64,000 nt of DNA from Proteromonas lacertae. Lineage: Eukaryota. The stretch's first letter is position 1. Each line of letters opens with the position of its first letter. The position numbers and the translations under genes were made by a program. The notes under the pieces were generated by a model. The model saw nothing but the letters and a program-made list of their open reading frames with translations, searched no databases and had not been told where the DNA came from. The stretch spans positions 1-64,000 of the forward strand of contig NGBS01000316.1 of assembly GCA_002245135.1 (NCBI GenBank), in the 5' to 3' direction. Shown in pieces: positions 20,786-64,000 of this stretch.

Positions 20786-23700
20786 TTATTCTAACTTCAT
20801 AAACACTCTTGGTTTTCTCATCAAATTATAATCTCCCTTCAAATTCTCTTTTATTAGATTCTGCATAGTATTATCAAATATATCAAACAATAATGATTGA
20901 CACAATGGGTCACACAATGCAGTAGGTGTATCAGTTGGCCTAATTGTTGTACGAGGTGTTTTATTCATTGGAGTTGGTTTTTCTGTTGAGAATTGTAAAT
21001 AAGTTTCAGCTTTAGGTTTCACTCTATGTTCGTAAGTGTATAATAATTGAGAATCATTGACAATTTCCATCAATGTTGATGATAATAACTCATTAGCAAT
21101 ACTTCTACAACTATCACTCACTTGTTGTAATTCTGTTAATTGTTTTATTGTGGATGAACCTGGTCTTGAAGCAATAATTGGTTGTGAACTATTCTTTGTT
21201 TTATCTTCATTGTAATACTTCTCAATTGATTCATATTCACCTTCATTATATTCAACTAAGGCTTGAGGATTCCAAACCTCATAAATTACTTTTACATATA
21301 ATGTTTGATATCTTGTCAAGGCATTTGGATCATATACATACATCTGTGAATCACTAGATGAATTGAAATCTTTAATTTGTGCTCTTTCATACTGAATTTG
21401 TGTTTGATTCATTAATAACTGTGCTTTGATTGTTTTATCTTTCATTAAAGCCTCTTGTCTTAGTAATATACTTTTTGTTGTTTTATTTACTACACTTTCA
21501 TGTTTTGGTCGAGTTATTGGCTTGGATTTATCATTACTAGTATCTTTAATTACATTACAAGTCAAATTCTGTATTAAATGACTATAATTACCCATTCCTT
21601 TGAATGTAACAGTTAATATAGAAAATTGACCAGGTTGAATCGTTCCATTCATTGGAGTTAAACTTAAGGCTTCATATGGTAATAAATTAGTTCCCATTTC
21701 CCATTGAAATTGTACAGCATTATTCTTACAATTATTAGCCATTATCACTATATGCCTCATTATACCACCCACTGGAACTTTTCCTAAATTAATAATACTG
21801 GTGGAAAGTGTAATTAAATCATTTACTAACTCAAACTGTGGTTTGATTGGTGCTTCATACCAATTTGGATCTTTTAGACTACGATGAACACTTGGAATAA
21901 TTCCATTTCCATCTAATGTCAATTCTAATATTTGATTCTCTTGATTTTCACTTTCTATTCCATGCCATTGAATTGGTACTTTTAATTTATAATTCTTCGC
22001 TTCTAATGGATGGAATAGTATTGACAATGGGTAATAAGAATGAGCAGAAACAACACCTTCTTTATTCTCAATATTATAAACATACTGATTATAATTCTCA
22101 TTTGCAAAGTCTTTAAATACTTCAGAATCTATAGTATATTGTATATTACAATGACTCGAGTTGTACAAATAATACACTTGTCTGTTAGGATCCATTTGAC
22201 CAATAGGAATTGGATATAATGAAAAGAGTTTATTATCTACGAATAACATAGATTCATTATTACTCAAAGTATGTCCATGCAGCCATATTCTCACTTGTTT
22301 TCCATCTCTTAAGTATAAAACAACAGGTAAATCATGTTTACCATCAAAATCTAATGATATAAATCTATAAGTGAATTTAATTATAACACTTTCATCTGGT
22401 TTTAATGTTCCTTGTCTTGGTTTAATATCAAATAATTGTTTGTCAATGATTAAATTCTCCATTTGTTCTTTTGGTGTTGGTTCAGCACCATCATCCCAAT
22501 TCTCTAATTCTACACTTACTTCATTAGGTAATTTTAAATGATAACTTAATGGAATATCGCCATAATTGTGAAATAAAACACTAATAACTATTGGATCAGA
22601 ATTGATTGGAGATGGATCAAATGTAAAGTTAAATTCTTTTAATGCTAATGTAGTTTGTGCTAAACCTTTAGTGTTATTATTATCAATATCAAAACTAGTT
22701 AATAGTTTACTCATCTCAGTGTTAAACGGTAATATTTCAAATGAATTCCATAATCTATATGTTGGAATAACTCCACATCTTATATCTTGTATTTCTAATA
22801 AAGGTACTGTGCATTTACCGACTAAGTAACATATTGAACCTTCACCATTATCTGTATTCTCTTCATTATTTTCATTGTTGTTATTATTATCTCCCATATC
22901 AATTTTCCATGATATTTTATACTTATATTCTCTCTGAATCACTGGTTTAAATGTTATTTCTACTGTAATAGTGGATCTTGCTTCAATAAATCCTCTAGTT
23001 GGGTTTAATAATATCTCTGGAGTATCTTTACGGTTTATTCCCATTATCATTCTCTCTTCATCACCAGTTGGAATATATTCTTCTTCATCATTAGGTGTAA
23101 CTGATAATATATAATTCAATCCACAATCTGATGTATTACATAATGATATTTTCTTATGAGTTGTACCATTTAATACAACAGGACCTAAATCACAGTTGAC
23201 TGGTTCAAATTGTAATGCACCAGTACTTCCTTCACCTAATATCACAATAGTTTGATTCTGCCTTGAGTTTGTTTGGAAATTGATATTACTAATTGTACAA
23301 TCGACTATTCCACTGTATTTCTTCATTTCTTTGGGTGTAAATATCCAAGGTATTTCAATTGTATCATTTCCTTGAATAATTAATTCTTTTTCTTTTAATG
23401 TAATGATATTATCTAATCTTTTAGGTATTGATAATTGTAATAGAATTGGTATTCTTGAAGTATTATGAATTTCCATCTTCTTTTCACTAGATAATCCAAT
23501 ATAAGTCGGTTTAAAATAAATCTCTTTGTCATCACTAAATTCAACAGATGGTAATGCACCTAAACCTCTTATACTATAAGTTACTGAGAAATTCTCTTCT
23601 CTGTTGAATAATACATGGGCTAAGGTATTATATCCAATATCTTCAGCAGGACTAAATGAGAATAAAAATATTTGAAATTCACCTGCAGGGATCAAACCAT

Positions 23701-25920
23701 GTTCGGGATATATTTTAAATATATTTGGATAATTCTTAATATCAATATCAAATACTATTGGAGTTTCACCTTCATTTATAACTTTAGTAGTTTGATAGAC
23801 TGTTTCACCTACATAACATGGTGCAAATATAATATCTGGAGGTGACATATTGATATTGGTTTTAGGTAAATAATGTTCAATATGTGGCATAAATGTATGG
23901 CCTGTTGCTCTAATATTACACATCCATGATGGAGTTAATGTGTTATCATTCACCAATCTGAAGTTTCTATTGATTTTGAATGTAGCATAACCTTCTAATT
24001 CTCTACAGTAATAGAAATTATCTCTACCTGGTTTGAATAATACTCTAAATTGAAAGGTTTTATGAGGTTCAATTTCTGCTACAGCTGGTGATACTTGGAA
24101 TTCATTTTCTGTTTGATATTTATCTGTTCTATCATAATCAGGCATTCTCCACCAGAATAATATCTTTCCTTCTGTGTTATTTGTTACTGTTATTTCCTTT
24201 CTTACCATTCCATGCGATCTTATACATTGACCAAAATCTATACTTGATTTACTTAGTGTAATTTCTTTATTATTCTTTTCTTCTTTATTATCAGATAGTA
24301 TGAATATATTATTAATCATTTCTTCTTGTGAATTATACAATGTTCCTGTATTACATAACAACTTTCTCCATTTAATCAATTCTTCATTAGGCTTGTATAA
24401 GGCTTGTTCTCCTTGTTCATTCATTATAGCATCGATTTCTGCAGGACTATTAAATAAATAACCAGCTTCTCTTCTTTTAAAGTAATTCAATACATGATTA
24501 TAAGTCAAAGGTTGTGGTCTGCTTTCTTCATTATAAGAAGTACCAATTGTGTCAATATAAATAGGTGTTTGATTCTCAATAAATATATATAACCTTCTAT
24601 AGTAATTACCAGGATATAATGGATGAAATCGTATATTGATTGGTATATTTAACTTCGGTTGTAATACTCCATTATTTTGTTGGATATTAAATACACCATT
24701 CTTTTCACATTGGAAATGGTAATTGGCTGGAACATTGGAAGTATTGCACAAATATATTGTTTGACTAACAGACGAACCAGCTTCACAATCTGGAAATACT
24801 AAACATGGTGGATCAACTGGATTCTTATTTAAATCACATATTACCACTTGTGGACCTAATGCATATCCTTTTACATATAATATATTGATTAATCCACAAG
24901 GCATTTCTATTGTGTAAGATTCACTACTGTATAAACCATTGACTTTTGGTATAAATTGGACTTTGAGGGTGAGATGACCATTTGCTGGAATTACACCATT
25001 AAAAGTTGAAAATCTAAATAATTAATATTAATATATTTATTTATTTATTTATACTGAAACATAGATGGAATATCATTATTATTTCTAGTAATTTGAAATG
25101 TTGCATGAACTGATGTTGGATTATCAATTTCTACCTTCATTTCTTTAGGTTGAGAACCAATCTATATTTATTATAGTTACAATATATACAAAACATTCAC
25201 CAAAATCAAGTGTCTTTTCAGACATTTTCATAAATGGATAATGTCCAAATCCATCCAATAAGATTGGACAGTTCTGTCTTCCTTTATCGATAATACAAAT
25301 TGCTTTTCCTTTAATATAATCAGCAGTAACAGGTGAATAAGAGACTTTGATTGTTAATTTCTGATTTACTGGAACTACACCTTCACTTGGTTCAAAATTG
25401 AATGGTGATTTATAATCAAATTCAAATGGTGCATCTAACTGTCCAACATTGTCTAATACTAAATCTACAGTTGATGTTTCATTAACTGGAGTATCTGGGA
25501 ATGTTAGCGACTTTGGAACATCTACAGCAATTTTGGCAATACGAGCTGATATTGGAACTTTGAAAAATCCTCCTGATTTTGTATTAACAGTGATTTCATC
25601 GAAATATTCTTCATATTTAATTGGTCTGAATGTAACTTCGATATAGAACTTATTTCCTGGGGCTAGTTTAATCCATTGGGGAAATGGTAATGAAAAGAAT
25701 TTGTTTTCTGGCATTACATATTTAAAACTCACACTCTATAGCAAATATAAATATATAAATATTTCTATACTCTTCCACTGATATTTTGTATTTTGAGCTT
25801 TCTAACATATTCACCACCTGGAAGCCAAGATCCACCAGGCCATTCTAGACCACCTCCATAACTTAATCCAAAAGCTTCTGGTGTATCATCGGTCTGATTA
25901 TTATTTGTTACTTCTTTCAT
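20786..25920 (-). CDS. CFAP65: Cilia- and flagella-associated protein 65 (ASH/MSP-repeat protein)
   Basis: Repeated Ig-like ASH domains; FKYVMPENKFFSLPFPQWIKLAPG...VTFRPI..EEYFD; ELEGYATFKINRNFRLVND..LTPSW; ~1,670 aa after splicing. Confidence 0.85.
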
Positions 25921-28836: not shown

Positions 28837-31134
28837 TCATGCAGTTGGATAATCAGGCATTTTTTCGGCTTTTCTTTTTCTTCCCTTTAATGTTTGTTTA
28901 ACCCTTTGTCTGAATTGTTCAGCATTTATTTTATCCTTCTTGATAACTTCATCATATTCAGCAATTGTTGCTTCAATGAACTCCATAATCTGAGTAGGTA
29001 AAGTATAAATCTTCTTCACTTTCTGTTTTTCTACAACATACCACAACAAATCATTAGCTGATGGATATTCCAATTTATTACATACATATCTCACAAAATA
29101 TTGATGTAATGATATTTGCTTTGATAAAGGTCCAAACTTATCTTCACTACAATCTTTCCATGTTTTATCACCAACCATTTTGATTGGATATAATGTTTGT
29201 GGATCTATTTCAATCTTAATATCATTCTTATAATCTAATGGATATTGATAATTTACCTCAGGAACAATAGGTTGTAATTCAGGGAATATATTAGGAATAT
29301 CAACATTATTTACAGTCTTATTTCTATCAACTAAATTAGATAAATAATTCAACTCTTCATTGGATATAACAATATCTGGAAATGGCATTATTTTCAAGAA
29401 TGGTAATTCTATTTTTACAGTTTCTTTACTACATTCTCCATCTAATAGTATAATCTTCTGATCTTCTATAATTAAATGATTTTGGTATTGAGCTTTAATC
29501 ATTTCTTTCCATTGCATTGGCTCTTTCTTTCTTGCTTCTTTAGACATCCACTTAAATGCACAGTATCTATTAATCTGTCTCTTTGCCCATTCAGATTTAT
29601 GTTTTAAATGTAATAATTCCAATATTTTAATAAGATACTTAGCAGTTACACCAAACACTCTTAATCTATTATGCTGAATTGATGAATCAAGTACAAAAGG
29701 ACTCATTACACAATACCAAATTGCAATATCTGTTGGTGCTTTTATTAACGGATCAATTGGTAAACCTGTCAATGTAATATTAGTATACTTCTTTTTTACA
29801 CTAAACTTTAAATAATCTTCAAATATCTTCATAAATCCCTCTTCATTCTTCAACCACTCAATATCTTTGATAATAAAATACATCACGAATAACCATAATA
29901 CATCATTCCCTACAATCTTTTCGCCAAAAAACATATTAGCAATAGAAAATCTATTAGCTTCAATATGTGTCTTGTCACTACCAAAACATAAAGCACAATT
30001 CACATTAGAACGAGTAAATGGTGATACTTTATCACCTCTGTTCCACATTTCTTTCAAAGAATTTAAACCAACTAAATGATCAATTCTAGTTTTTATTTTC
30101 TTTATTAACTTAAAATTAAATAACACTGATAATGGATTATTCACATAGTCATTGATTTGTTTTTGTTTTAAACCCTTAAATATTGGATCTCCTTCTTTGA
30201 TTAAACAACAAGGAATATCGGTATCTAATGAAATTGGACATTCAAATATTCCACTACATTCTACACTTTCAGGTAATTCTTCTTCAACAATATCTGCTCT
30301 TCTTACACGACTAATTACATTAAATGAGAAGTCAAGACATCCTGTACATTTATCAATCATTTCTTTACACAGTTGTTGGATTACTTTTGTTTCTTTGGTT
30401 GATGCTGCATTTGGCATTACATCATCTAATACAATTTTTATCGCTTCTTCTTCAGTTCCTTCTTTGGATGATAAAATTGATCTGATTCTGTCGTAATCAA
30501 TCTGATTATGTGATTTTGATACACAATTCAATAGATTCTTCTGTAATTCTAAAAGATCATCTCTCAATTGAAGATTCTCTAACCCTAAATTTTGCATGGT
30601 GATTTTTGTTAATAGATCTTTTGCTTCTTCTTTGAAAAGAGCTAAATTGTTGTGGTATTTCTTGAGATCTATCACTTCTCTTGAATTGCCTGCTGCATGC
30701 AATTTTTTATCAACATATATTTCATAGTTCGTCTTTCTTGTGAAAGGTGCTGATACTGATAAGTTCATATTTCCACCGCATGATGAAATGAAGTGAACTT
30801 CTACCTTCTTGAATGGTCTTGACTTTAAAATTTCATCACATCTCTTTACTTCACCATTATCTACTTGGCCATCTGTGACGAGAATAACATAAGAGTCTTC
30901 GAGTGTGAATGGAGCAATTAAGCTTGGACTAGTCCCACAATTACCTTGTCTGCTCTTTATAATTTTTAAAGCATCTTCATATGGCATAGTTTTAGGTTCT
31001 TCACTATCCCAGAAGGTTATAGTTGAATTATCTTTAAAACGATCAACTATAGCTTGCACACCATCCCAGTACTTATCACTAGATCCAGTAGAACCAGAAT
31101 AGTCTATAAATATGCATGGTTTCAACTCACTCAT
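28837..31134 (-). CDS. Intronless 765-aa protein with N-terminal vWA (MIDAS) domain and central U-box-like CPIS...SPFTR segment
   Basis: IFIDYSGST, GTSPS, ILVTDGQV MIDAS motifs; FECPISLD...SPFTR; single exon. Confidence 0.8.
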   Translation of the reverse strand: MSELKPCIFIDYSGSTGSSDKYWDGVQAIVDRFKDNSTITFWDSEEPKTMPYEDALKIIKSRQGNCGTSPSLIAPFTLEDSYVILVTDGQVDNGEVKRCDEILKSRPFKKVEVHFISSCGGNMNLSVSAPFTRKTNYEIYVDKKLHAAGNSREVIDLKKYHNNLALFKEEAKDLLTKITMQNLGLENLQLRDDLLELQKNLLNCVSKSHNQIDYDRIRSILSSKEGTEEEAIKIVLDDVMPNAASTKETKVIQQLCKEMIDKCTGCLDFSFNVISRVRRADIVEEELPESVECSGIFECPISLDTDIPCCLIKEGDPIFKGLKQKQINDYVNNPLSVLFNFKLIKKIKTRIDHLVGLNSLKEMWNRGDKVSPFTRSNVNCALCFGSDKTHIEANRFSIANMFFGEKIVGNDVLWLFVMYFIIKDIEWLKNEEGFMKIFEDYLKFSVKKKYTNITLTGLPIDPLIKAPTDIAIWYCVMSPFVLDSSIQHNRLRVFGVTAKYLIKILELLHLKHKSEWAKRQINRYCAFKWMSKEARKKEPMQWKEMIKAQYQNHLIIEDQKIILLDGECSKETVKIELPFLKIMPFPDIVISNEELNYLSNLVDRNKTVNNVDIPNIFPELQPIVPEVNYQYPLDYKNDIKIEIDPQTLYPIKMVGDKTWKDCSEDKFGPLSKQISLHQYFVRYVCNKLEYPSANDLLWYVVEKQKVKKIYTLPTQIMEFIEATIAEYDEVIKKDKINAEQFRQRVKQTLKGRKRKAEKMPDYPTA

Positions 31135-31510
31135 GTAAAAATGTAATAATGAAAGATTTTTGGAGTTTACAAAAGTGATGAATATTTTAGTTAGTCTAAA
31201 AATGAATATATTTACATAAGTAAATATTGCAAATAAAAACTGTGCAAAAGTGAGTATGTTAAAATGAAGTAGAAAAGTGATTTACGTTTATTGATTTTAC
31301 TAATTCTCAAATTCATTATATTAACTAGATTTAACATCATTAATACACTTTTTATTACTGTTTTAACTCAAATCATAAATAATGTTTAAATGTATACTAT
31401 ATTTGATATTTAGATAGTTGAAAATATATCTACTTCACCAGCGAAATATAACTGACTAATATTCAGCATAGAATGAGTAATTTTAAATTTTCTAAAATAA
31501 AATAAAACGA

Positions 31511-34500
31511 ATGAGGTTTGATACAGCTTGGTCTTTATCGTTATGCATATTGCTTATTTCTTTTTATTTATAATAGGCATATCGTCGTTCGATATGTTTT
31601 ATTATCCAAAAATTGGTGACCCATTAGATGGAGAGTTGAAGACATACTTTGATACATTAAAAGCTTCAATTACTGATGCAGCTGAACCAGATTCTACTAT
31701 TACTGCTTATTCCAAGAAGAAAGATATAGCTGATACAATAAAAGGTTATAATAAAACCAAGACAGCTGTAATCTTTAGTAGGTTTTTAGATATTACAAAT
31801 TCTGAAATTCAAGAGATATTTAGTGATACAAGGCATATAGTTTTTGTAATTTCATTAAATCCTTATGACATTTGTTCAAATAACATAATCTCTTATAGCA
31901 ACGATGTTATTGCTCCGGCACAATGTATATTTTATTATTAATTATTATAAATAGATATTATGTATCTTGCTAACCAAAAGAATGCAGAATCAACATCTTG
32001 TATTATTTATAATCAAAAATTGAAATCTGCACCATTGATAGAGAATATTATTGCAGAAGTAGGTATTCTAGGAGGAAAATTTATGAAAGTTATTAAGATC
32101 GGTAATTATGTTGGACCTCCAAGCCAACCTACTACTGCAGCTCCTTCTGGAAATTATGATGATGATTGTACAATTACTTATATTCATGTTAGTAAAGATG
32201 ATATAGCAAGTTTATCATTATCAGCTACTACAAAAGTTTATCTTCATATGTCAGAAAATGATGGTATTACTTTTAATTCAGGTGATTATTTTATTACATC
32301 ATCATTATCTAGTGTTAATGGTGGAATACCAGACACATCTACACCAGCTCCAGCTCCTTCATCAAAGTTGTCATATGAATTTTCAGCATTATATAATATG
32401 TTTATTGCATTTAAAGAAACATATGAGTCAATTCAATCATTAGATCCAATCAGTTTATTATCAACATTTAGAAGAATGACATTTGAGTTCAATCGTCAAA
32501 GTACCAAATTATTAAATACTAACTATTTTAATGTTCCATCAATCTTAGCTAGTCATGATGGAAGTACATTTACAGTAGAAAAGAATCTAACAACAGATCC
32601 AAACTTATACTATGCATTTGAATCAACAAAATATAAAATATGTGATGCAATTAGTGATTCAATGGAAGCTTATAATCCATATGGAATTATACTGTTATAT
32701 GCAAGTGAAGGTTATAATGCAACATCTGATTTAAAAGTATATCAAGTGTTAGAAGCAGAAGTAATGAATATGAATAAAATGGGAGGATTAAATGATAGAA
32801 GTATTGTTGTATTTCCTGTTAATTATGTTCAAGATTATGAAACAATGGTTACTGAAGTATAATTGTTATAATAATAATAATTATTATTATTATATTAAAT
32901 AGTTAAGACAAGCTTATAAAGAACATTTAATATTGGCTATTCTAAGTCTTGCAGATTCAGATACAAAAGCAAAAATATTAGATTGTATTTATTATTATTA
33001 TTATTATTATATATAGCTGGAAAAATGGAATCTGAAATAAAGGATACAGTAATATTAGATTTTACTAATACAGAAGGTGGTGTATGTAATCCAAATATAA
33101 TCCAAATTGGTGTCCCAGTCACATCACATTTTCAAGTTATTAATTATCAATTTATTGGAACTAAATTCGAAGGAATTAATATTATTGGTTCAGATTTATT
33201 GTATATATATTAGTTATATATAAATATTGATTAGATATGGTACTGAAGCTTATAATATTGTTGAATATTATGCACAGAGATATAAATATAAAATATTTGC
33301 TGAATATAGAATGGCTAATAATTCAGTTGGTGAAGCAACCAATGCAATTACTTTAATTAAATCAAAAGCTGCAATGAAGAAGTCAATTACAATATCAGTG
33401 CTTGAACCAGAATACATTAATACATACTTAGGATTGTTAAATACTTTAAATATTACAGCTGATGATTATCCTCATGTGTTCTTCAATTTAAATCCATATT
33501 ATATTGAAAAATTACCAAATTCAGTTATTGGTCATTATTTCACAGGTCATTACATCGCTGAAGAAGAAGAAAGTGATAATTTGACTAGAATACATAATTC
33601 TATAAAGGATATGTTATTATATGATATGACAGTTACTTCTCAAGGCTTATTAGTTAGTATAATACCAAGTATATTAATACAAGTGGTTGGATCTACTAAA
33701 TCTTATGCTGTAGAGACTATTACACAGTATTTTTAATAGGAATTTATATATTTGTTAATAGGTTTTTGATAGGATCAGGTTTAAAAACATTTTCAACAGG
33801 TTATATATCAATAGCACCAAATCAATATTTATTAATGACTTTACAATTAGCTAAAATTGTTGCAAAAGATGATTATGAAGTGATTGTTAATTCACCATCT
33901 GCTTATTATCCATATGAGTTTTATAAAGGTGATTATGTTTGTACTCTATCAGAAGCAGAGCCAGTTAAAGCATCATCACCATATTACTACCTTGTAGTCT
34001 TGCCAGATTTAAGTCTTGATAATTTATATTATAGAAATATATTTACTAGATTAACAGAAAGTATTGATGTTATAATGGGAATATTTAACCTAAATGGTGG
34101 ATTTCAGAATCATTATTTATTTGCTGACTTTTTCAGATTAACAGCAACAAATACAATGGATAAATTAGAAAAAAGAGTTAAAGATGACGATGTATTGTTA
34201 TTAGTTGGATTGTTATTAACAAATCAACAAAAACAAGAGATTGGTGATATTATAAAAGGTGTTGATAAGATATTAATGATAACTTCCAATGCAGCTGGTG
34301 ATTTTTGTCATCCTAATGTTTTACAGATTGGTTTAATGCCAAATCAATATTTATCAATATCTGTATTATTTATACAGAAACATGGAGATGGGTGTGCTTT
34401 TGTTAGAACAAATGATGAGTATAACCTATCTATCTATCTATATATTTATTTATTTATTTATTCGTATAGAGTATCTGAATCAATGTCAGCTTATATTCAA

Positions 34501-37500
34501 GATTATACTGATTTATATTATCCTGGTACCAAATGTTTTGAAATAATGTTGGATAGTGAAGATAAGGTTTCTGATAGAATAAATGAAATGTTCCAGAAAT
34601 TATCATCATTCTCTCATTCAATTATTCATATTCATGCATATGATTATTCTATTTATGCATTAAGAGAAATCAGACAACATGCAGATTATCAAGAAAGTAA
34701 AATAGATGAAGTGGTTTATGATTATCCAGCAATATTATTAGAATCAGAATTTAGATTTGCAAGACCACCAATGAAGTTGAATGAAACTGACTTAGCAGGA
34801 GTATATTTTATAGATACATTGTCATTTGAAAGTGGTGAAATGAGTGCGTTGAATATAGAAGAATCAGTAGGTGATATTTCCTATTTAAAAGTTACAGATG
34901 CAATGAATTTCTTAGAAACCATCCATAGTCTTCAAGATTTGTTTAATGTTGTTGGTTCATTAAGTAGAAATGCAATGGCAAGTTATTTAATTGGAAAGCA
35001 AATGCAAACTATGGAAGGAACGTTAGAAATAGATGGAAGTTTTGCAATATCAAAATGTGCTAAATTATTCCAATTTAATAATGATTTATCTTATAGTAAA
35101 GTATTTTCAGAGACTTTCTGTTATAGGCCACAAATATTTAATGTATATGAGAATGAAACTGAATATTATACATGTGATTGGATATTAAATAATGAAAGTA
35201 ATAAAACCGAAGGAAATGAAATATCACTTGGTTATGTAACTGATTTAACATATTCAAAATGGAGTTTAGGATATGAAATGGATTCTATGTGGGATAATAT
35301 TGAATTTCTTAATAAGAATGGAGGTATTGATAAACATTATGTAAGATTATTCACTGAAACTTGTCCAACCAATGATACTGAAGCTGAAGCTATGTTTGAA
35401 AGGTTCAAAAAAATCGGAATTAAAGTAATAATTGGAGGATGCAAACCATTTTATCGTCATATAATAGAGAAATATTTAGAAGAATATGAAATGTTATTAT
35501 TTGCAACAAATGATTATGAAGGTAATTCATGTGAAGAAAATGTATTTTATTTCAGAGAAACACCATCACAGATTATTCTACCAGCTACATTCTATATGGT
35601 AAGTCAAGTAAATGTTATTAATTTGGTATTCTTTGTATCAGAAGATGAACAATCTCAAGCATTAGAGGTATTCTGCGAAGACTTATTGAATAATTTTGGA
35701 GCACCATTATTAAAAATATTCACAGTTAATACTACTTTAGATACTCCTATCAAAACTCAAATTCGTCAATATGTTACTCAAATTGCAATGGTAATGAATG
35801 ATGGTGGTCTTATATGTAATCTAATGTCAGTGGATCAATCAGAATTATATGCTGCTGTTTATGAGATGTATAACTCTTCTGATACTGACTCGTTATTCCG
35901 TATTCTTGATTTCATGGAAATACCAGCTACAGTAGATCCAAAACAGAGAATAGGTAGTTATTTTGTAGAAACATTTGCTCCAGTTCCTCAATTTCCTACA
36001 ACATTGTTTTATTATAATCTGAGAAAGAAGAGATCTTCATTCTTTTCAATTAATAGAGTTATTTATACTGAATATCTTGCACTTAATGTTTTAGGTTTAA
36101 TACCATCATCGTCTCAACAGAATATAACAGAATTTAAGAATCAAATATTCACTGCAATGCAAACTAATAAAATTGCTGATGGTTATACATTTACTTATGA
36201 TCAACATTTAAAGAATAACATTTTTGTTGGTATGTATATCAATGAAACCTACGTAAAATATGAAACAGTTGCTTCAAATGTTATTGCTGATCCTTACAGA
36301 ACCACATTCATTGAAAAAGATTATCATTATATATGTAATCATTACAACGATAGGATTGGTAAAAGATTCAATAAAACTGTACAACCAGTCTATGTAGGAG
36401 TTGATATTAAGAACTCATTAGGTAGTGACGATTGGGATGTTGTACACACAACTGCAACTACTTTATATACAAGAAATATAGTAAATGATGAATTACCAGA
36501 TACACCATATTTTGGTATTAAAATATTAGGCCCAGAATACTATGCAGGTCAAAAGAAATTAGATGTTGATGCAATATTTGCTGTTAGAGATGAAAGATTA
36601 AGAAATGCGATACAAGCTCAAAATCCTAATGTTTTGTTATTATCTCCATATATAGCACCAGGTGATTCTTGTGAAAATGGAATAGTTCATCTTGGTAATT
36701 TATTTACTAATTATTTAGCCTTTATTACTTCATTAGTTCATCAATATCGTGATTCTGAGTATCTTATATTTTATTCTGCTTATGAAGAATCAATTACAAT
36801 GAAAGACCAAGTTGTTAATGGATTGAATGAATACCAATGCAATATAGCAGGTACATTTTCATTCCCAATTAATTCTGAATATACCGAACCATTAATAGAG
36901 AATATTGCTTTTCATTTACCAAATGGAGGTATTATTATAAACTTATTGTTAAGTCAAAGTGGTAAATCATTATACAAAGCAATGGCAGAAAACGAATACA
37001 ATCCACCAGATTATTTAATTGTGACTAGTACAATAGATATATCATCAATTCCAGAGGATGAATTACAATATACAGTTGGACATTATTTCTGGTCAATGAA
37101 AGATTATGACAAGAATTCAGATGATGGTAAAGAATTTGAATATGGTTTTAATACTTTATTCCATGATTTAACAAGATTTAGTAGTGTTTCAGTATGTCAA
37201 TATATTGCATTGAATTATTATATTCAAACATATGAAATAAAGAAATCGTTAGGTGATGATTCTACTAAAACGTTTATTGAAATAATGAGAGAAAATCCAT
37301 TGAAAAATACTCTAATTGGTACTGTAGAAATAAAGAATAATAATTATGCTACTTTTGATGTAATCTTGTTCACTACAATATATAATCAAGCCACTAATAC
37401 AGTTACAAAGGATATTCTATACAATAATTTATATCCAATAAATCCAAATCCATATAGATATTTTGGTGTAGAAAAAACAGTAAATTATCATACATGTGAT

Positions 37501-40500
37501 TTAGTAAAAGGTGAAATAAAATCATTAATTCGTAGTTACTATATCGCATTGTTATTACCATTAACAGGTGTGTATGCTGTTGATCCTATTACATATGAAG
37601 AAGTAATTACCGCCGTAGCAAAATACATCAATGATGTTGGAGGATTTAACCAAATATATGTTAGTTATATAGTGTTTGATACGAAATCAACAGAAGAAGG
37701 AACTAATAGAGTATTTGATATTTTAGAAATACAAAAGGAAAATATTACCACTTTTATAGGTTGTATTGATCCAATATGTCAAAAAATTGCTAAAGAGAGA
37801 TTGGAAGACAAACATTTCATTTGGATGCCATCTGTATCATCAGGTCAACAATGTAGTAGTAAATTCTTTGTAACAGGAGCTGTTCCTAATCAATATGTAA
37901 CTGCTATTAAAGATTATATGATTGGAGTTAGTTCAGCAAAATATGCATATTTCTTATATGATGATTTTGATCAATATAAAATACTAAGTGAAATTGTTAT
38001 AGCTACATTGAAAGGATATTATACTTTTCTTAATCCCTTGGTATTATCAGATGGTCAAATATTAAAAGCAGCAAATATTACTGATATAGTATCAAAGCTT
38101 CCAAATGGAGGATTGATATTTTCAATTGTTTCAGCTAATAATTTCCAATTATTAGTTAATGGTGTATTGTCAAGAGTAGTAAATCCAAAGAATTATTACA
38201 TTATTCCATTGAATTTAGAAGATAGTGATATAAAGCCATTAATAACAGATATTGCATATTTACAACAAATAATTTTCTATCAAACTTATTATAAACCCAT
38301 GAAAGAAAATCTATATTCGTTAAAGAACTTATTGTATAATTATGTCAGAGAAACAGCAGTGTCAAGTTTAAGTGATAATGTTTATACAGCCTTAATGTTT
38401 TGGTATAATGCTGTTATGGAACTAAAAGAAACTGATATGACTAAAATGTACAGTTATCTCTATAATGTTCAAATTGAAACTGATTCTGGCGTTGTACAAA
38501 TGTATACAAATCACCATACATCAAAATATATATTCTTATTCCGATATGATTCTAATGGTAATAGACAATTATTGAAGAGCAGTTCCTATCCATTAGTGCC
38601 AAATCCATACAGTTGGGCATTGGAAGATACATATGGTAAAGTATGTAATCATAATGTAACAGATGGTGAAAATGTACAATCTCATATTATAAAGATTATA
38701 TTAGGTATATCATTAACAGGTATTTATGCAGATAGTGATAAAGGTATTAGTGATGCATTCACATTAGTTTTAGATGCAATTAATAATCAGAATCCATTGT
38801 TAGATAGTCAAATAGAATTGTTATTAGTTGATATTCAAGAAGATTCGTCAGCATGTTATTCTGCATTAACCAAAGAGATTGTTCCTGAAGTATCTGCTTT
38901 ATTCACAACTGGTGATGCTGAATGTCGTGAATTATTATCGACACAATTGGTAGAGAATGAAGTGTTGTTATTTGCATTGAATAATGTTGCAGGTGAAACA
39001 TCTAATTCACATATGATTATGGCAACTCCAGATCCATCCATCTTTAGATATTACATACCTTATTTATTAGCATCACCAGTACATCAATATTCCATTATTG
39101 CTGTTAATACTGATACAGGCAAAATATTCTCAGAATATTTCAATGCATTGATTACAAATAACGGTGGTAATGTGTATGTATCAGTTACAGTTCCAATTAC
39201 AGTTACAGATGTTAGTTCAATTATTGATAATATTATTAATCAAATGTCAACAGGTATTATATTCTTAATTGTTCCAGAATCAATTGTTATATTGTTTGAT
39301 AAAGCTTTAACAGCTAAAGGTGTTGATCCATTTGCTTATAAAATCTATTCACTAATGGCAGGTGAGGAAATAACAAGTAAAGTAAATAATGCATATATTA
39401 TATTAAGAACTACATTCTCAGTAATGAGTAATACTAAATTAGATATGTTTAAAGAAGAAATTGAGCCATTATTAGGTGAGAACGTTCCAGTTAGTCAACC
39501 AATTCAATTAGCTTATACATTTTTGAATTTCTATTGTGGTGCTGTTAGAAATACAAATTCATTAAATACAGACAAATTATTGAATTATATGTATGAAAAT
39601 AATTATGAATCAATGATAGGAGATGTTCAATTAGATACTAATAATATGTTCCCTTTCACACTTCGTGGATATTATACAGTTGAAGATCAAATTATTTATG
39701 AATCTAATAAACCAATCGATCCAACACCCTGGAAGAGAGAATTGAATGGTGGTTTATATACTTGTGATTTCAGTAATAGTGAGATAGGAGATAAATATTT
39801 ACAACCATCCTTAAGAATTGGTGTTATTTTCCTTTTGCATGGTACTACAGTTAATCCAAATAAATATGATAATTTGTATATTAATGCTGCTCTGTATGGA
39901 TTTGATGCAATTAATAATGCCGGTGGATTACATGGTCAATATATTGATCCAGTGTTATTAGTAGTAAAAGGTGGTATTAATGATTTTAAAACACAAGCAG
40001 TGAATACATTCTCATTATTAACTACAAAGTATATGGTTGGTGGTGTAACTGATGAAGAATTAGAAGTAGCTATTGAATTGTCTAATAAGTATCAGAAGTA
40101 TTGGCTTTTCCCTGGTAAAACAGTTGGTTCTACTTGTCCTGAATTTGTTCTATTTAGTTATCCACCTCCAAACTTAGTTGTTGGTGCTGCTTTAAAAGCT
40201 ACTATGCGTTTTGGTTTATTTAAATTGGCATTAATTAGTGATTTAACAAGTGTTTCTAAAGCTTATACTAATGTAATTAGTTCAATATATGCAAGATTAG
40301 CTAAAACAATGATTGTTTATTATTACACAGTGAATAATACAAATATTGATGATATTGTTAGTGATATTAAATTACATTCTAATGATTTAAAAGGTATAGT
40401 AACAACAAGTGATGTTAGTAGAAGTGAAAGTGTTGAATTATTACAGAAATTATATGATAATGGTATTGATGGAACAAAGTTCATATATGTGCATACAAAT

Positions 40501-43438
40501 GCTGATGAGAATATTGTAAATACCTCCAATGAAGAAATACTTGAGAATCATTATATTATCACATCATTCTCAGAAAGTTTCAGTAATCCAAACGATATTG
40601 CATACAATTCACTAGCTGATGATTTCATAAAGAATATAGAATTGAGAAATGGAAAAAGTAAAAAGATAGATCCAATAATGGAAGGTGTGTATAGTACAGA
40701 ATTACTATGGAAAGATACAGTAGATAGAGTTTATAACTATGAAATTAAAGATATTAAAGATAATTTATACAGGAGAGAAGTATCTACACCATCAGGAACA
40801 ATGAAATTGAACGCTAATAATTATGTCGATAGAATTATTTATGTTCTACAATACAAAGCTAAAGAATTTAAGACAGTTTATATGACTGATAGTCCTTCAA
40901 CCGCAAATCCATATAATCAATACGATCCAACTGAATTAGGTTATATTTGTGACTGGTCTTCAACAGGTAAAGGTGCTAAATATAGAAGAAATGTAAAATG
41001 GATAAATATTGTAATTGAAGGAGATAAACATTTAGTTGTTAATTCATTTTTATCTTGGCATTTACTAGGTTCTGCAATTGACAAGATTAATAATGGTGGA
41101 TCTAATTTAGATTATTATTATGCTTATTATACAACAGTGGTTTATCCAAATACAAATACATCAGATATTGAAATAGAGAAAGGTTTTGAAGCTTATAAAC
41201 CAGTATTAATTATAGGTTGTATGGAAGTGGAATGTCTTGTATATTTTATTAATTTATATATATATATATATATATATAGACATGGATGTCAGAGAAAATG
41301 AATAAAGTAGATGCGTTGTTCTTATATATAGGTCAATCCTATAAATCAGTATGTAACAATAGAGTGTTTTATCTTGGAACAACTCCATACCAGAAATTAA
41401 CTACCTCATTAAGTTATGCTGAAAAGAGTACTGTATCTTTATTCTATATTTTGTGTAAAAATACTGAAGAGTATATAATATAATATATATATTTATCATT
41501 ATTTTTAATAAATAGTGCTCAACTTGAAATACAACCATTCTTAGATGAATTAACATATTCAAATATTTGGACACTTATAGGTATTGCTAGATTTGAAGAT
41601 TCTTCAACCAATAATGATTTTGAATCAACCTTAACCACAATCCTCAGTAAAACAAAGGGAGTTACTTGCATATGTATATATTTTTTATTATTTTATTATT
41701 CATGAATAGTACTGAATTTCTTAAAAGGTAATTTAGGAGTTAAATTTAGTAAGTTTTATTATTCATCAGACACAGATAGATCAACTTATATAATGTTATA
41801 TATGAACTATGATGAAAGTGATTATAGAGAAATGAAAATATCAGCATTAAGTAGTGCTACATTTGTGTCATCCTATTCTAAAGGTTTGACAAGTGGTCAA
41901 TCAACAGCATTTGAATCTTTCAATTCAAAGAGAATTGGTTATGACTCTGAATTAACAGACAATTTAGAAGCAGTCTACATTGCTATGACAATATATGGAT
42001 TGGGTCTAACAAAAGCGTCAGCCTTTACAGGAAAAAAATGGCCAGGAAATGATTATTTAAGATTAGCATTAGTTGGAATATCAGCAGAAACACCATCAGG
42101 TAATATTGTAGTAGAAAACAATAATTTTGTAAGTAGAGATATGAGAGTGTTTATTATCTCACAATATGGAGATTACAGTCAGATTTATCCATCCAGTACA
42201 ACTACATTACATATGTCACCTTGGTCAAATACATCAACCGAATGTCTTAATGTAAAAGAAGATACATATCATACAATTCAACCATTAGTAATTACTGTAA
42301 CATCAGTTCTTGCATTTGCAAACTTGTTGTTATTATGTCTAACATTATTCTTATTAGTAAAACATAGAGATCATAGATTATTCAGAGCATTTACAACAGA
42401 ACATAACTATCCAATTTTAGTAGCTTTACTGTTGTTTATGGCATTTCCATATTTGTTATTCCCACCTAATGAAGATAATGCAGATTTCCTATGTAAATTC
42501 AGAGTTATTTATGCTTCATTCTCAATGATATTGTTGTTAGCTTCAATGTCACATAAAACATTTAAGATTATGACACATGCAAAGAAAGGAAGAGTTCGAA
42601 AATTACCAATTCCTTTGTTAGAAACTGGTTTGATCTTTTTAGGTGATATTGTCATTGATATGATTTATGTAACAATATGGTTGGTAGTATCACCTCCTGA
42701 ATATGAAGTCGTGTTATATGAAGAAGGATCTACTTATTTCATTAATCAATGGGTTAAAAGATGTAGTACAAATAATTGGGGAATTGTCAATATTGGTTTA
42801 ATAGATTTTTGTTGGTTAATTACATTCTTTGTATCTTATTATTACAGAACAGCTGGAAATCGTTATGGTGATACATTGAGTCAAGCATTAGCAAATGGTG
42901 TAATTACATTTATAGGTGTTGCTGTTGCTATTTGTGGACAATATGTTACTAATGATCCAACATTGAATGATGGTTTAGTAATGATTGGTACTGAAGTTGC
43001 TGTTTTACTAACATTCTGTACATTACTTGGACCTAAAGTGTGGAAGATAGTAACAAAAGAAGGAATATTAAGTACAACTTCATCAGATTCTAGTTATGGA
43101 TCAACCACCAAGACACATAAGAGTAGAACACATCATACTCATACTCACAGAACCCATACAAGAAACACAAAGAGTCATAATACGAAAGCAAATAACACAA
43201 AGACAAATCCAGCAAAGAATGATGTTGCTTCACCTGCTACTACTTCAACCAATCCTGTGAAAGTTGCACCAGCTCCTGATCCAGTTGCTGCTACAGCAAA
43301 ACCTAACACTACTACACTAGCTACCAAACCAACACCTTCTACACAACCTACTCCTGTTAAAGATGCTGTAGCTCCAACTAGTAATCCTGCTACTACAACT
43401 CCTGTTGAACCTGTTACAACTACACCTGTAGAGCCTGT

Positions 43439-43488
<50 letters not shown>

Positions 43489-43739
43489 AAACTACTCCTG
43501 AAACTACTCCTGAAACTGCTCCAACTGTAGATGCAACTGCTGTTGAACCAGTTACTGTTACTCCAATTGAACCTGTTGATACAACAACTGTAAATGTTGC
43601 AGATTCAACTACCCCTGCTGCTACTGCTCCTCCAGCTGAAACAGCACCTCCAACAACTGTTACTGTAGAACCTCCTGCGCCTGATCCATCTGCTGCTCCT
43701 GTTGTTACAGATGCTGTAGTTCCAATCAATGATTCTTAG
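31511..43739 (+). CDS. Giant (~3,900 aa) class C-like GPCR: about nine tandem type-I periplasmic-binding (UrtA/AmiC-like) domains, 7TM_3 domain, Pro/Thr/Ala-rich tail
   Basis: All ORFs from 31528 to 43739 join in frame through short introns. ~400-aa repeats carry IN..GG, YEG..C..NVFY.G..PNQ and TPSG.+.+..NNY motifs; seven hydrophobic helices with KHRDHRLFRA, LCKFR and HKTFKI class-C signatures. Confidence 0.85.
43440..43520 (+). repeat. GCTCCT hexamer and CCTGAAACTACT 12-mer coding repeats (APAP, PETT)
   Basis: About 8 GCTCCT units followed by 12-bp units in the GPCR cytoplasmic tail. Confidence 0.9.
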
Positions 43740-48211: not shown

Positions 48212-50845
48212 ATGTTTTTTTCTTTTATATTTGCTCTATTAATAAGTTATACAGCTCTTTGTCAAGATTATGTATTTCCCAAGTATCCAGCAATGCAAAG
48301 TAAGAAATTTTAGATTATAATTTTTAGTTAATTGGTCATTTAACCTAGGTCATGATGGATGGATCAATTTACCTTATGATAAATCTGGAATTGCTTTATC
48401 TTATAAGATTGGATTTTTAAGAGGAGATATATTAAACTTAACTCCATATTTCGAATCACCGCCATTTGAAATGATCGAGCCATATCCAGCATCTATTGCA
48501 ATTCGTATGAGTTATTCTGTTGGAGCAAATGTAACACAAGGTCAATTAGATATTCAAATTGATCCTAATGATGTTAACAAAACACTAAGTTATCAATTTC
48601 CAATAAATCCTGATGGAGATTTCCATCTATATACAATACCGTTAGAATATAGTGGTCCATTTTATAAGTTGAGGTTTTATCCTGCCATTAAAACAAATGA
48701 TAAGTATAATGATTTATTTATTTATTGTATTGAAATAGTGATGGCCCATCTCCCAATCAAATGATATATATTGATTTTGTTACAGTATATAGAAATCCAG
48801 TAATAGAGCATGTAGAAGGATGTTCAAATAATAGAACAATAGTAATAAGTGACAATAACACGTTTGATGATGGATTTGATGATCAAAAAATAGCAGGAAA
48901 TTACACACGAACTTACAATTGTTTAAGAACAGGTGGAGAAGTAATAACCATAAAAGGTAAATATTTGGGTAATGAAAATAGTCGAGTTTTGCTTGGTGAT
49001 TATGAATGTAAGAATGTAGTGACATTAGTGGCTGATGAAATAATACAATGTACTGTTCCACCAGGTATTGGTGAGAATTTAACAGTGAAAGTATTAAATG
49101 GCGAAGATTATGATGTGATTGGAAATATAACAAAAGGATTTTCATATCAACATGAGATTCTAAATTTAACTAAACCTTTGATATTTAATATTAATTCAAG
49201 AGCTGTTGATGTGAAATGGGAATATGGATCATATTATGAAAATGTATATATATAATATATTATTATGTTTTATTATAGTTGGCTACAACTGGATATAAGA
49301 TTCATTATGAAGAAATGGAAAAAACAGATGAATGTTTTGAATTAACAAAATACTTCTATCAACCTGTTCCTGATACTGAAAAAGAAAATTGTAAAAGATT
49401 AAAAGGAGGAGATATTAGTGATATTATAGTAACAAATGTAACACAAACAACAATCACTAATTTAAAAGAAGATACAATTTATTATTTATCGATATATTCA
49501 ATATCTGAAGATCAAACGTTTAGTAATATCACATTCTTTGGTGATTTATATAATCATAGAAAATTAGGAGATTCTCCAGTATTTGGATATGAATCAAATC
49601 CAATATACTTTAAGACATTGTTATGGGATATAAACTATAATAATTTCACAGCAAATAATACAATGAATTATGGAAGTTTAGATGAAAGAAATATCAAAGG
49701 AATATTGGAAGATATAGGTGGAAGTGGTAATTATGGTTTAATCTTGATTGGTGATAGTCAAATAGAGAATTGTAATGATTCAAGCACTTGTTGTGATGAT
49801 TATGATGAAAGTACAAAAACATGTAAATATATGTGTGGTAAGAATGGATTAGTTGGAAGAAAATCATACGATTTAACCAGTTCATATGATAATCAATATG
49901 GAGACAATGAAACTTTATATAATTTCTTACATTATAATGGTTTATTAGTTGGTAATTCTGAAATATTTCCTCAAGAACCAATGAGACAATGTGGTACAAC
50001 ATTGAGACTTACGACAAATACTTCGTTTCAAAATGGAATTGTTTATTATAACCAAAAAGTTCATATTCGTGAAGGTTTTGAAACAGATTTTACATTCAAA
50101 ATACATAGTAATTCTAATAATTGTAGAGCTCAGAATGGAATAAATACATTTTGTAGAAATCAACCAGGTGATGGATTTACATTTATTATTCAAAATAGTG
50201 ATAATAAATTCGTTAAAAGTGGTAAAAGATATAACAATTTGGGCTATGAAGGTATTAATAACTCAATAGTCATTGAATTTGATACAAATTATAACGATGA
50301 AGATTTAGATCCATATGAAAATCATATATCTGTTCATACAAATGGTATTTATGCTAATACAGCTAATCATACAGCTTCAGTTGGTTTTACAACGAAGATT
50401 CCAGAATTAACACAAAATATACATCATGTGTTTATTAAATACAAATCACAAGTATCAAAATTTGATGAGGATATAATTTATAATGATAATTTTATGTCTA
50501 ATTCGAAGATAATGGAGTTTTTAGAAGGTGGAGATTATGAGAATGGTGGAAATCCTACTTTTTATGATGGAATGGGATTATTAACAATGTATTATATTAA
50601 TTTTTATTATTTTGTAGTGCTATTGATAATGAACTTGATCCTGTGCTTATTATACCAATTAATATAGAAAGAACAATTAATTTAGATAATGGAAAAGCAT
50701 ATGTTGGTTTTACTGCCTCAACTAGTCCCAAGTTTTATGAAGTATTTCTTTATTTGTTTATATATATTTATTTATTTAGACACATGATATTCTTGATTGG
50801 CATTTTAGATCTACTCGTTACAGCCTTCCTTATTATGAAAATTAA
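48212..50845 (+). CDS. Secreted protein with IPT/TIG, FN3 and legume (L-type) lectin domains
   Basis: Signal peptide MFFSFIFALLISYTALC; GGEVITIKGKYLG...IQCTVPPG (IPT); TITNLKEDTIYYLSI (FN3); GFETDFTF, GDGFTFIIQ, IVIEFDT, AYVGFTAST (L-lectin). Confidence 0.85.
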
Positions 50846-63400: not shown

Positions 63401-64000
63401 AGTAATTATGGGATGTATGTCATCTTCACTTTCAACATTCTTCTTATATAATCTGTAATTGGATTTGAATGGATAACAAGTATTTTCATCAATATAGAGT
63501 TTTATTGTAATAACTGATTTTTGCTGTTTGAAACAATAATCAAAAATATTATCTTCATATATTATCAGATTCAAATTACTTGTTGTTATTCCACTTACTC
63601 CAATTGCTTTTATGATATATTCTGTTTCTGGCAATGATTCATTTACTTTTCCACTTATTATACATGCTGAACTATTAAAATTAAGAAATGATGGTAATTT
63701 AGGTGATATTTCACATCTTTCTAAGAATCTTGTAGATTCTGGTATAATAGAAAAATTATCATTTAAGTAATATTCATATATTTTTTTACTATATTCTAAG
63801 ATTGGCAACTTAATATCAGTGGTAAAATCTATCATTTTATAATAACCATTTTCATTTGTTACATTTTCGATTAACACTCCATTAGAATACAGTGAAAATG
63901 TATTTAATATTTTGTAATTACTGCTTTCATATGTGTATAACTTATAATCACCATCAATTAAACATACTGTTTGAGAATAAACAGGAAAAAAATCTGTATA
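60473..64000 (-). CDS. Type I membrane surface protein with He_PIG (putative Ig) repeats, Cys-rich modules and jelly-roll domains; 5'-partial
   Basis: Repeated P.LP.GL.+...TG.ISG motifs, C...C......R.C...W...C modules, TM AVIGIAISCVFVGIMVILTVIFYLL; frame stays open to the window end; intronless. Confidence 0.85.
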   Translation of the reverse strand, partial: YTDFFPVYSQTVCLIDGDYKLYTYESSNYKILNTFSLYSNGVLIENVTNENGYYKMIDFTTDIKLPILEYSKKIYEYYLNDNFSIIPESTRFLERCEISPKLPSFLNFNSSACIISGKVNESLPETEYIIKAIGVSGITTSNLNLIIYEDNIFDYCFKQQKSVITIKLYIDENTCYPFKSNYRLYKKNVESEDDIHPIITLDWDEEKKTKDTTYEYSYCLDEDVYTSFYYYYNHYYGYKSAYIDVLVNNIPVTRRSLILHENEGSDDFNAISDYNFNTEWEYSSKYEDGWDDIDKASGVWKESSLSELKGKISGNVVYIRKIDSFSDLEKYNAFTFKVRYISGILMKINGEEIFRNNLPPGEITPDTMATGRNDNMTDEVFILPLSFLEEEKVIITIELHKFENQTNFPQINTYLLRIIGSESDCLILNKYTNTVNETDTHDYSLQSKIKYGFDENPNSIWKSDINGWIEIRFKDHFYSYFNQFSIQAVVKGKSALQDIDFDGFDINNFHVSIAKFDNILYPYNNRKIFTNYNLSTLYSSFRISYKYVTGSDKLLILRDINFHLCPIRYCEASIDKKLPKTLSGTEISIPCNNDTLGGERTFYCGNDRKWIEIVSTCSNKELPTLIYKESEYTFIAGNYYYNVSLFTVSGKDTTYDIHPKIEGLTLDENTGLISGQPQKELEKQEIEISVYRNFFAPNISFYINITILPPEKPKILSYKTIIELEVGTYYNDYCIFNVSGRNITYEVDGLPNGIEMNKTTGLISGICLREIRMFCLFTARNKYEIKFPLEIAFVKPMHLKIIKYEKEVNLTFGENYTSLKPYECSGRSIEYSTDPKLPTGLKINEYTGIISGIMNLQQPGDIDYIFMCYNGDNLSKPITFHYQHSIQPIIFTHIDNLAIEGGKEYDNITLGIITGNNLLYRIYPNLPSSTTLKLNSSSGIISGYITEEFEPMNLTVTISGNGKQVSFSFMLFCSMPNYPIIIPSTKMSSMKYTFGDIITSSYLFIASGTNIEITVSPDLPKGIILDSKTGEIYGLPSVYVDKRNYTFVIKNPPSSNIEFVDIEIELKVIYCESDSGFPKSSADKRGREISIKCGGLKGGMKTRKCKLNNENKGIWSEIDDSDCKINSGAVIGIAISCVFVGIMVILTVIFYLLKSGMFRKRARSTSSLINEDRII

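Follow-up and report, generated by a model that had tools for sequence, protein, structure and literature searches.

A 64,000-nucleotide (nt) stretch of Proteromonas lacertae DNA (contig NGBS01000316.1 of GenBank assembly GCA_002245135.1, positions 1 to 64,000 of the forward strand; referred to below as the window) carries on its forward strand, at 31543..43739, a predicted gene of ten exons for nine repeats of the periplasmic-binding-protein type I (PBP-I) class that derive from the urea-binding protein UrtA, a class C seven-transmembrane (7TM) domain and a low-complexity tail. The explanation preferred for this locus, which is given an even chance of being right, is that one predicted gene encodes a class C G-protein-coupled receptor (GPCR) whose nine UrtA-derived flytrap folds lack most of the urea residues, and that this receptor likely belongs to a diversified family of chemoreceptors in a protist that is flagellated and probably gut-dwelling. 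An earlier reading of the same letters (the original prediction) had described a giant class C-like GPCR with about nine tandem UrtA/AmiC-type domains.

For scoring, 75 repeats of relatives were made into a profile from which the window protein and its orthologue were excluded. R2–R9 gave 89–219 bits on this profile. R1 gave 21.8 bits, above the highest of 300 shuffles (12.4 bits), and is therefore a real but degenerate ninth copy, so that the array consists of eight full repeats and one degenerate repeat. The copies are R1 (31588..32658, intron 1 inside), R2 (32668..33969, 110 bits, introns 2–5 inside), R3 (33973..35205, 89 bits, intron 6 inside), R4 (35212..36369, 107 bits), R5 (36373..37530, 136 bits), R6 (37531..38682, from phmmer and its model), R7 (38683..39807, 213 bits), R8 (39808..40992, 215 bits) and R9 (40993..42272, 177 bits, introns 7–9 inside), all on the forward strand. 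Counted from the membrane, R9 is T1, R8 is T2, R7 is T3, R6 is T4, R5 is T5 and R4, sixth from the membrane, is T6. In R7 a Ser replaces the first Cys of a conserved pair, R6 and R9 have an additional GC-x4-C pair, in R6 at the pocket, and the C-terminal linker of R8 is the closest to the cyanobacterial UrtA tail. Pfam placed Peripla_BP_5 on an open reading frame (ORF) of 2533 amino acids (aa) in five stretches (E 4.8e-86), where Peripla_BP_6 also matched, and half a Peripla_BP_5 followed by 7tm_3 on the last ORF. Nine tandem copies followed by a 7tm_3 domain were thus recovered as originally proposed, the nine motifs quoted for them being found in order from 31858 to 41337; of the proposed ~400-aa unit the ninefold recurrence stood and the length did not, the unit being ~380 aa. 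Pairwise identity among the repeats is 18–27% and no repeat is seen at the DNA level within the ectodomain, from which it follows that the amplification is old.

No single uninterrupted ORF spans the locus on the DNA, where ORF pieces of 303, 170, 2533 and 677 aa were found across 31.5–43.7 kb (+). Excision of nine GT–AG introns (30–51 nt, 5–18% GC) gave one frame of 3,948 aa from 31543 to 43739 in which the sole stop is terminal (TAG 43739). The introns, all on the forward strand, are intron 1 at 31925..31954 (30 nt, phase 1, containing in-frame stops), intron 2 at 32857..32902 (46 nt, phase 0), intron 3 at 32985..33016 (32 nt, phase 1), intron 4 at 33201..33234 (34 nt, phase 2), intron 5 at 33727..33761 (35 nt, phase 2), intron 6 at 34419..34469 (51 nt, in frame, phase 2), intron 7 at 41239..41279 (41 nt, phase 0), intron 8 at 41471..41515 (45 nt, phase 2) and intron 9 at 41674..41709 (36 nt, phase 1). 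An upstream ATG at 31511 was rejected as the start, a stop being reached after 20 codons; the ATG at 31543 is likelier, and the short hydrophobic N-terminus that it opens (31543..31587, +) was judged by eye to be signal-peptide-like. A 24-nt intron candidate at 36695–36718 was also rejected, as the same residues are coding in the orthologue.

All nine introns lie within repeats, and every repeat–repeat and repeat–7TM junction is exonic. The exon pieces of R2 matched the profile in order (3–56, 90–142, 147–304 and 308–372, with one of five pieces unplaced), as did those of R9 (26–81, 84–143 and 195–363, with one of four unplaced), and R3 scored 95.4 bits with intron 6 spliced compared with 81.5 bits with it kept. 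The orthologue (P0001–P0008, eight alleles in Logan that are 99.5–99.9% alike) is 80% identical to the window protein; at site 6 its ORF begins inside a frame-shifting intron that is read through, and at site 7 it terminates in another intron. A metagenome scan with P0001 confirmed no locus. Introns 4 (in R2) and 6 (in R3) share the identical aligned column and phase and intron 8 (in R9) lies one column off in the same phase 2, a coincidence of ~6e-4 under a uniform model that was spotted post hoc; the shared position suggests that the duplicated unit already carried an intron. This model depends on nine predicted introns, and its N-terminal 430 aa match weakly (R1), so that separate genes (two at least, such as one for a shorter receptor and one for a secreted protein of repeats) could have been joined wrongly. 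Such an error is nevertheless highly improbable, since all of the breaks lie inside repeats with their exon pieces in profile order, two of the intron sites are common to the orthologue and relatives carry up to nine repeats and a 7TM domain in one ORF. The intron placement, the exonic junctions, the intron sites of the orthologue and the single-ORF relatives together favour one predicted gene.

The class C 7TM domain that the original prediction had placed after the repeats was found by Pfam, AlphaFold2 (AF2) and Foldseek at 42276..43034 (+), with seven predicted helices and a hairpin in extracellular loop 2 (ECL2), followed by helix 8. The Pfam match to 7tm_3 scored 70.9 bits (E 1.7e-19, cut-off 33.5) and covered profile positions 6–251 of 251. 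An AF2 model of 41706–43070, calculated from a 26-sequence alignment, reached a predicted local distance difference test (pLDDT) score of 85.6 and contained the seven helices, helix 8 and the ECL2 hairpin. In a Foldseek search with this model GABA-B was the best match (7cum_B, E 9.5e-16), mGlu and CaSR were next, and every row listed with a named receptor was one of these three. The cysteines of transmembrane helix 3 (TM3) and ECL2, the TM3 Lys, the acidic residue before TM6 and the PK motif of TM7, which are class C motifs, align with two animal class C sequences. No Pfam match to the cysteine-rich domain NCD3G was obtained, and TM1 follows the last Cys of R9 at a distance of ~10 residues; mGluR, CaSR and T1R differ in having NCD3G between flytrap and 7TM. 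With animal GABA-B the protein shares 7tm_3, a short linker from flytrap to TM1, the ECL2 hairpin and the absence of NCD3G, but GABA-B has one ANF-type flytrap instead of nine of UrtA type, is ~15% identical and has no counterpart of the long Thr/Pro/Ala tail. By sequence and fold the protein is a class C receptor, including the large bilobed flytrap ectodomain of that class, here ninefold instead of single. A predicted cytoplasmic tail of ~225 aa (43050..43736, +, from the sequence) begins with a Ser/Thr/His cluster and continues as Thr/Pro/Ala/Val-rich low complexity; it has PA and ETTP runs, a mucin-like make-up that is odd for the predicted cytoplasmic side.

The ancestry of the repeats was examined by sequence, profile and fold. 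A phmmer search of the PDB with R6 returned four matches, all of them urea-binding proteins (8TG1 among the named), with UrtA 7s6e as the best (E 1.5e-17). A five-repeat profile matched UrtA at E 1.9e-43, AmiC at 3e-9 and LivJ at 3e-4 and retrieved no animal flytrap from the PDB at E<=0.1. TIGR03407 (UrtA) was the best NCBIfam match for all five repeats scanned; R4–R8 scored 37, 25, 77, 65 and 73 bits against a curated cut-off of 492.75, with 611 bits for the control L004. These repeats fall far under the cut-off and have lost most of the urea residues; they are descendants of UrtA without being UrtA members. Folding covered R4–R6, and the AF2 model (pLDDT 78) had a predicted template-modelling score (pTM) of 0.75, which suggests a defined packing between the modelled repeats. 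Nearly all rows of the fold comparison fell on R6, R4 and R5 being barely compared; for R6 the Z scores were 42.7 to UrtA (root-mean-square deviation 2.7, 379 residues aligned), 39.0 to AmiC and 31.2 to mGlu. A complex prediction of R5 with R6, in which the alignment was not used, scored 0.00 and speaks neither for nor against an interface.

Like cyanobacterial UrtA (PDB 7S6E, 7S6F, 8HIC; TIGR03407), the repeats have the PBP-I fold, a GxxC motif and a C-terminal CDW tail with Cys, the inter-repeat linkers being this C-terminal tail; they differ in being ~20% identical to it, concatenated ninefold, fused to a GPCR and without permease genes nearby. The Cys pair of cyanobacterial UrtA (the GxxC Cys and the tail Cys) is retained in 66 of 70 scorable repeats (74 examined), from which we infer a disulfide between the two. 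AmiC (PDB 1PEA) is of the same PBP-I subfamily and is a sensor rather than a transporter subunit, but its match is weaker (E 1e-8 to 3e-9, Z 39) and ends before the C-terminal tail. AmiC itself is a cytoplasmic protein that needs an ANTAR partner to act, and ANTAR neighbours were observed here. Nothing at E<=0.001 came from homologue searches seeded by words (R6 against longer proteins, and the five-repeat alignment), the method being insensitive at 20% identity. In the ESM Atlas R6–R8 led to generic PBP-I clusters and the paralogue P0032 to diatom and animal ANF–7tm_3 clusters, and no multi-repeat cluster was present among the matches listed for them. The results support UrtA-derived PBP-I domains and not flytraps of animal type. 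The UrtA/AmiC-type assignment made originally thus agrees with profile, fold (R6) and TIGR03407, in all of which UrtA is best; of the structural expectation, the PBP-I fold was obtained for R6, within a model of R4–R6.

The bacterial origin that had been suggested for the binding domain is seen best in a relative, P0030 (Logan, 3,745 aa, N-terminus cut). This protein has nine UrtA repeats and 7tm_3 in a single ORF with a GC-richer residue make-up, and its repeats total 2,996 bits on TIGR03407. It shares nine UrtA repeats, 7tm_3 and the same linkers with the window protein and differs from it in that its repeats are up to 56% identical to cyanobacterial UrtA and include five full urea sites. 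Five repeats keep 8/8 urea residues, the cut first repeat keeps all six that are visible, one middle repeat keeps four and the two repeats next to the membrane keep one and three of eight. In a GTDB scan with six patterns the best matches were 53–56% identical, and of the best 80 of at least 592 confirmed loci 79 were titled cyanobacteria. A metagenome scan with the C-terminal part of P0030 confirmed no locus. In a 25-row tree the five intact repeats form a clade (100/99) that is sister to cyanobacterial UrtA (99/97), and an approximately unbiased (AU) test rejected a clade of the 11 sampled bacterial UrtAs that excludes the P0030 repeats (p 0.007, for a group named after earlier trees had been seen). 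When ten repeats of the AT-rich family described below were added, all 19 eukaryotic repeats formed one clade (Shimodaira–Hasegawa-like approximate likelihood-ratio test, 99). The donor was likely of cyanobacterial type to judge from these trees and matches, and P0030 is a candidate urea-sensing GPCR from a eukaryote.

The urea site of UrtA comprises eight strictly conserved, binding-relevant residues (W120, S122, Y141, Q144, E146, Y190, N246 and S274), and single mutations of W120, S122, Q144, Y190 or N246 lower or abolish urea binding, according to PMC10392092. In the window protein 1, 2, 0, 1, 1, 0, 0, 0 and 2 of the eight are kept in R1–R9, respectively. It is therefore very unlikely that the repeats still bind urea or small amides and act as a multivalent nitrogen sensor, although no known protein is nearer to them in sequence and fold than UrtA and P0030 has a full site in five repeats: single site mutations already reduce or abolish binding in UrtA itself, and Table S5 of PMC12129017 gives Proteromonas lacertae no urea or ammonium/urea transporter domain. 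Binding of urea or amides, as originally proposed for the repeats, is accordingly not borne out, with 0–2/8 urea residues kept in each and 25–77 bits for R4–R8 against a UrtA cut-off of 493. In the AT-rich family at most 3/8 urea residues are kept in any of 68 scored repeats, the T5 repeats of several paralogues retaining the pocket Ser, Tyr and Glu.

To collect this family, the C-terminal 455 aa served as the query of a full HMMER search, which yielded 55 clusters. In 15 of them 2–9 repeats and a 7tm_3 match lie in one uninterrupted ORF (in two the 7TM is partial and below the cut-off); many of these relatives have abrupt ends, and the numbers of repeats given for them are therefore lower bounds. 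All family members that were looked up came from Logan. Fourteen of the 15 repeat–7TM relatives share the AT-rich residue bias of the window protein. When numbered from the membrane, the repeats cluster by position, with 57 of 58 assigned correctly after their own protein had been left out, and 6/6 of the window repeats T1–T6 match their own position class best. The first tree (FastTree) served for position clustering alone, because rooting on animal flytraps is prone to long-branch effects. Paralogues that are ~20% identical thus keep the position identity of their repeats, and since repeats are orthologous by distance from the membrane the array is older than the family expansion.

Other architectures were also met. 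A sixteenth cluster has two repeats and a glutaminase. The P0059/P0093 cluster (46 members from Logan, JGI and ENA) has a signal-like start, two UrtA repeats, one predicted transmembrane helix and a glutaminase domain; the urea motifs of the first repeat are intact, and a urea-regulated membrane glutaminase is possible. P0123, P0056 and P0063 are other 7tm_3 proteins with a PDC/Cache domain, leucine-rich repeats or SBP_bac_1 (Vermistella in EukProt), and the 7TM domains of P0123 and P0056 group with that of P0030 at 85/92.

Several results weigh against the preferred explanation. At the eight pocket sites conservation was not above the background in any of the five position classes (T5, 0.23 versus 0.20) and was below it in T1 (0.12 versus 0.22) and T4 (0.11 versus 0.20), where 97–98% of random site sets score as high. 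Between the window protein and its orthologue the pocket is identical at 29/39 sites (74%) compared with 1483/1801 (82%) for the background. With no added constraint at the pocket sites, dead pockets fit equally well. As regards ancestry, an AU test did not reject moving the AT-rich repeats to AmiC/Liv (p 0.138), two animal flytraps included in a tree sat in an unresolved group among long-branch repeats, and bacterial sampling beyond the cyanobacteria was thin (14 proteins, of which six were UrtA and eight AmiC/Liv). The phylogeny anticipated originally thus holds for the grouping of the intact P0030 repeats with cyanobacterial UrtA, and the AT-rich repeats may instead belong with AmiC/Liv. 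P0030 and the AT-rich family are not united in the 7TM tree, and the P0030 repeats are unmatched by position to those of the family, so that P0030 may be an independent fusion. In the same tree the 7TM domains of the window protein and P0009 form a long branch of their own apart from 11 other AT-rich members.

The pocket statistics would also suit the main rival, in which the pockets are dead and the nine folds form a structural stalk or a variable rod at the surface; the tip or outer face of the array would then sense macromolecules, cells or force (mucus, bacteria, neighbouring cells), and the clefts would sense no small molecules. A new GC-x4-C pair occupies the W120/S122 site in 14/14 T1 and 9/11 T4 paralogue repeats, no feature is better conserved than the fold-stabilising Cys pair, divergence is among the highest in the two outer full repeats and the protein sequence of the window gene has 23 N-glycan sequons. 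Against such a rod, position identity is kept across ~20%-identical paralogues, which is beyond the needs of a spacer, the pocket Ser, Tyr and Glu persist in T5 of several paralogues and P0030 has the same architecture with intact small-molecule sites; the rod is considered possible but somewhat doubtful. Obligate heterodimers are established for GABA-B and T1R, and the separate branch of the window 7TM, the GABA-B fold match, the lack of NCD3G and the absence of a recognisable pocket from all of the window repeats would likewise suit a non-binding partner subunit like GABA-B2 that dimerises with a ligand-binding family member and supplies G-protein coupling or trafficking. This is unlikely, because none of the 68 scored AT-rich repeats exceeds 3/8 urea residues and there is hence no obvious binding partner. 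As for the original suggestion that different repeats could sense different ligands, pockets that are not conserved among paralogues at the same position would fit diversification or decay alike, and the present data do not separate the two. Likely the receptor is no urea sensor but belongs to a family of chemical sensors that have diversified.

For the preferred chemoreceptor the following history and mechanism are proposed. A cyanobacterial-type urtA would have been acquired and fused to a 7tm_3 domain, and its tandem amplification would have produced a multi-site urea receptor with urea as the ancestral ligand. The array would then have been frozen by position, after which the gene family would have grown and its pockets been rewritten. 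Binding of a small molecule would close one or more clefts; each repeat, stapled by the predicted disulfide and packed on the next through a short linker, would relay the change along the chain to R9, which sits directly on TM1 with no cysteine-rich domain between them, as in GABA-B, and would reorient the 7TM dimer and so activate the G protein. Some repeats, most likely the proximal ones, would be non-binding relays, and a relay is called for by the intact distal and degenerate proximal sites of P0030. A wider joint reading is put forward tentatively and is rather improbable as a whole: a hitherto undescribed class C design of up to nine flytraps, in which distal ligand binding is relayed mechanically through non-binding proximal modules, may have had a single origin in a cyanobacterial gene for urea binding, with the first known urea GPCR (of P0030 type) as the outcome, and in reptile-gut flagellates may have expanded to ~100 receptors with position-specialised, ligand-diversified modules, each integrating several chemicals.

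Bacterial-type binding domains on class C GPCRs have precedents. In the parts of the sources consulted, Dictyostelium Grl is a class C GPCR with a Bmp domain (PMC3251606, PMC3971589, PMC5168858, PMC10445921), and class C GPCRs of chytrids, Allomyces and anaerobic gut fungi carry SBP_bac_1, OpuAC, LysR_substrate or type II SBP domains (PMC3251606, PMC3971589, PMC5168858, PMC10445921, PMC12716839). In the same parts, these amoebozoan and fungal receptors resemble the window protein in combining 7tm_3 with a bacterial-type binding protein, in lineage-specific expansions and in repeated independent fusions; they differ in that their N-termini extend to ~1,600–1,670 aa as opposed to ~3,460 aa here and in that no UrtA/Peripla_BP_5 domain or position-orthologous tandem array is named for them. 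In the literature searched, outside which the Proteromonas genome paper and some supplements lay, no GPCR with a tandem UrtA-type array was found described, and a literature search pairing 'Proteromonas' and 'GPCR' returned no papers. Class C GPCRs with one bacterial binding domain each are thus already known, and the tandem UrtA array on a class C GPCR, which was not found in that literature, is what is new.

The window is gene-dense with short introns and has 26.8% GC. The receptor gene has a GC fraction of 0.29 and a GC fraction at third codon positions (GC3) of 0.14, like its neighbours, which indicates that it is long resident. A scan of 12 neighbouring ORFs gave eukaryotic genes, for example CFAP65, PIP5K, PIG-X and PDZ, and among these 12 no UrtBCDE transporter or permease partners were found. 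The motif TGTTTGTT was not enriched in the window (3 matches versus 6.8 expected); a human-type Blastocystis origin was ruled out by the 26.8% GC, by CFAP65 and by the lack of TGTTTGTT enrichment. The CFAP65 orthologue is in pieces (20786–25735, −), and its presence indicates a flagellated organism. An 814-aa uninterrupted ORF with no Pfam match (28837–31281, −), vWA-like at its N-terminus by eye, is divergent from the receptor gene. Further along are a predicted surface protein with TIG, FN3-like and legume-lectin-like domains (48321–50667, +) and a large surface protein of He_PIG (putative Ig) repeats with a C-terminal hydrophobic stretch (60473–64000, −), which extends past the window end.

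Activation of class C receptors is understood from one flytrap per subunit, and five to nine in series, each with an identity set by its position, raise the question of how closure distant from the membrane is passed on. Between the intact urea sites of P0030 and the rewritten pockets of the others lies a series provided by nature, and P0030 lends itself to direct testing as a candidate urea GPCR and to use as a scaffold for biosensors with several sites. Proteromonas lacertae is listed in PMC12129017 (Table S5) with 27.0% GC, 7 G-alpha domains, 182 PBP-I domains and 116 domains of class C GPCRs but no urea transporter, these domain counts being published as table rows with 'GPCR' absent from the main text; all eight Blastocystis strains have zero class C domains and zero G-alpha there. 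The G-alpha and class C counts of Proteromonas speak in favour of the preferred receptor explanation. The family would explain the large class C and PBP-I domain counts of Proteromonas and, given the zero class C count in the eight Blastocystis strains, would tie the loss of flagella to the loss of a chemosensory repertoire.

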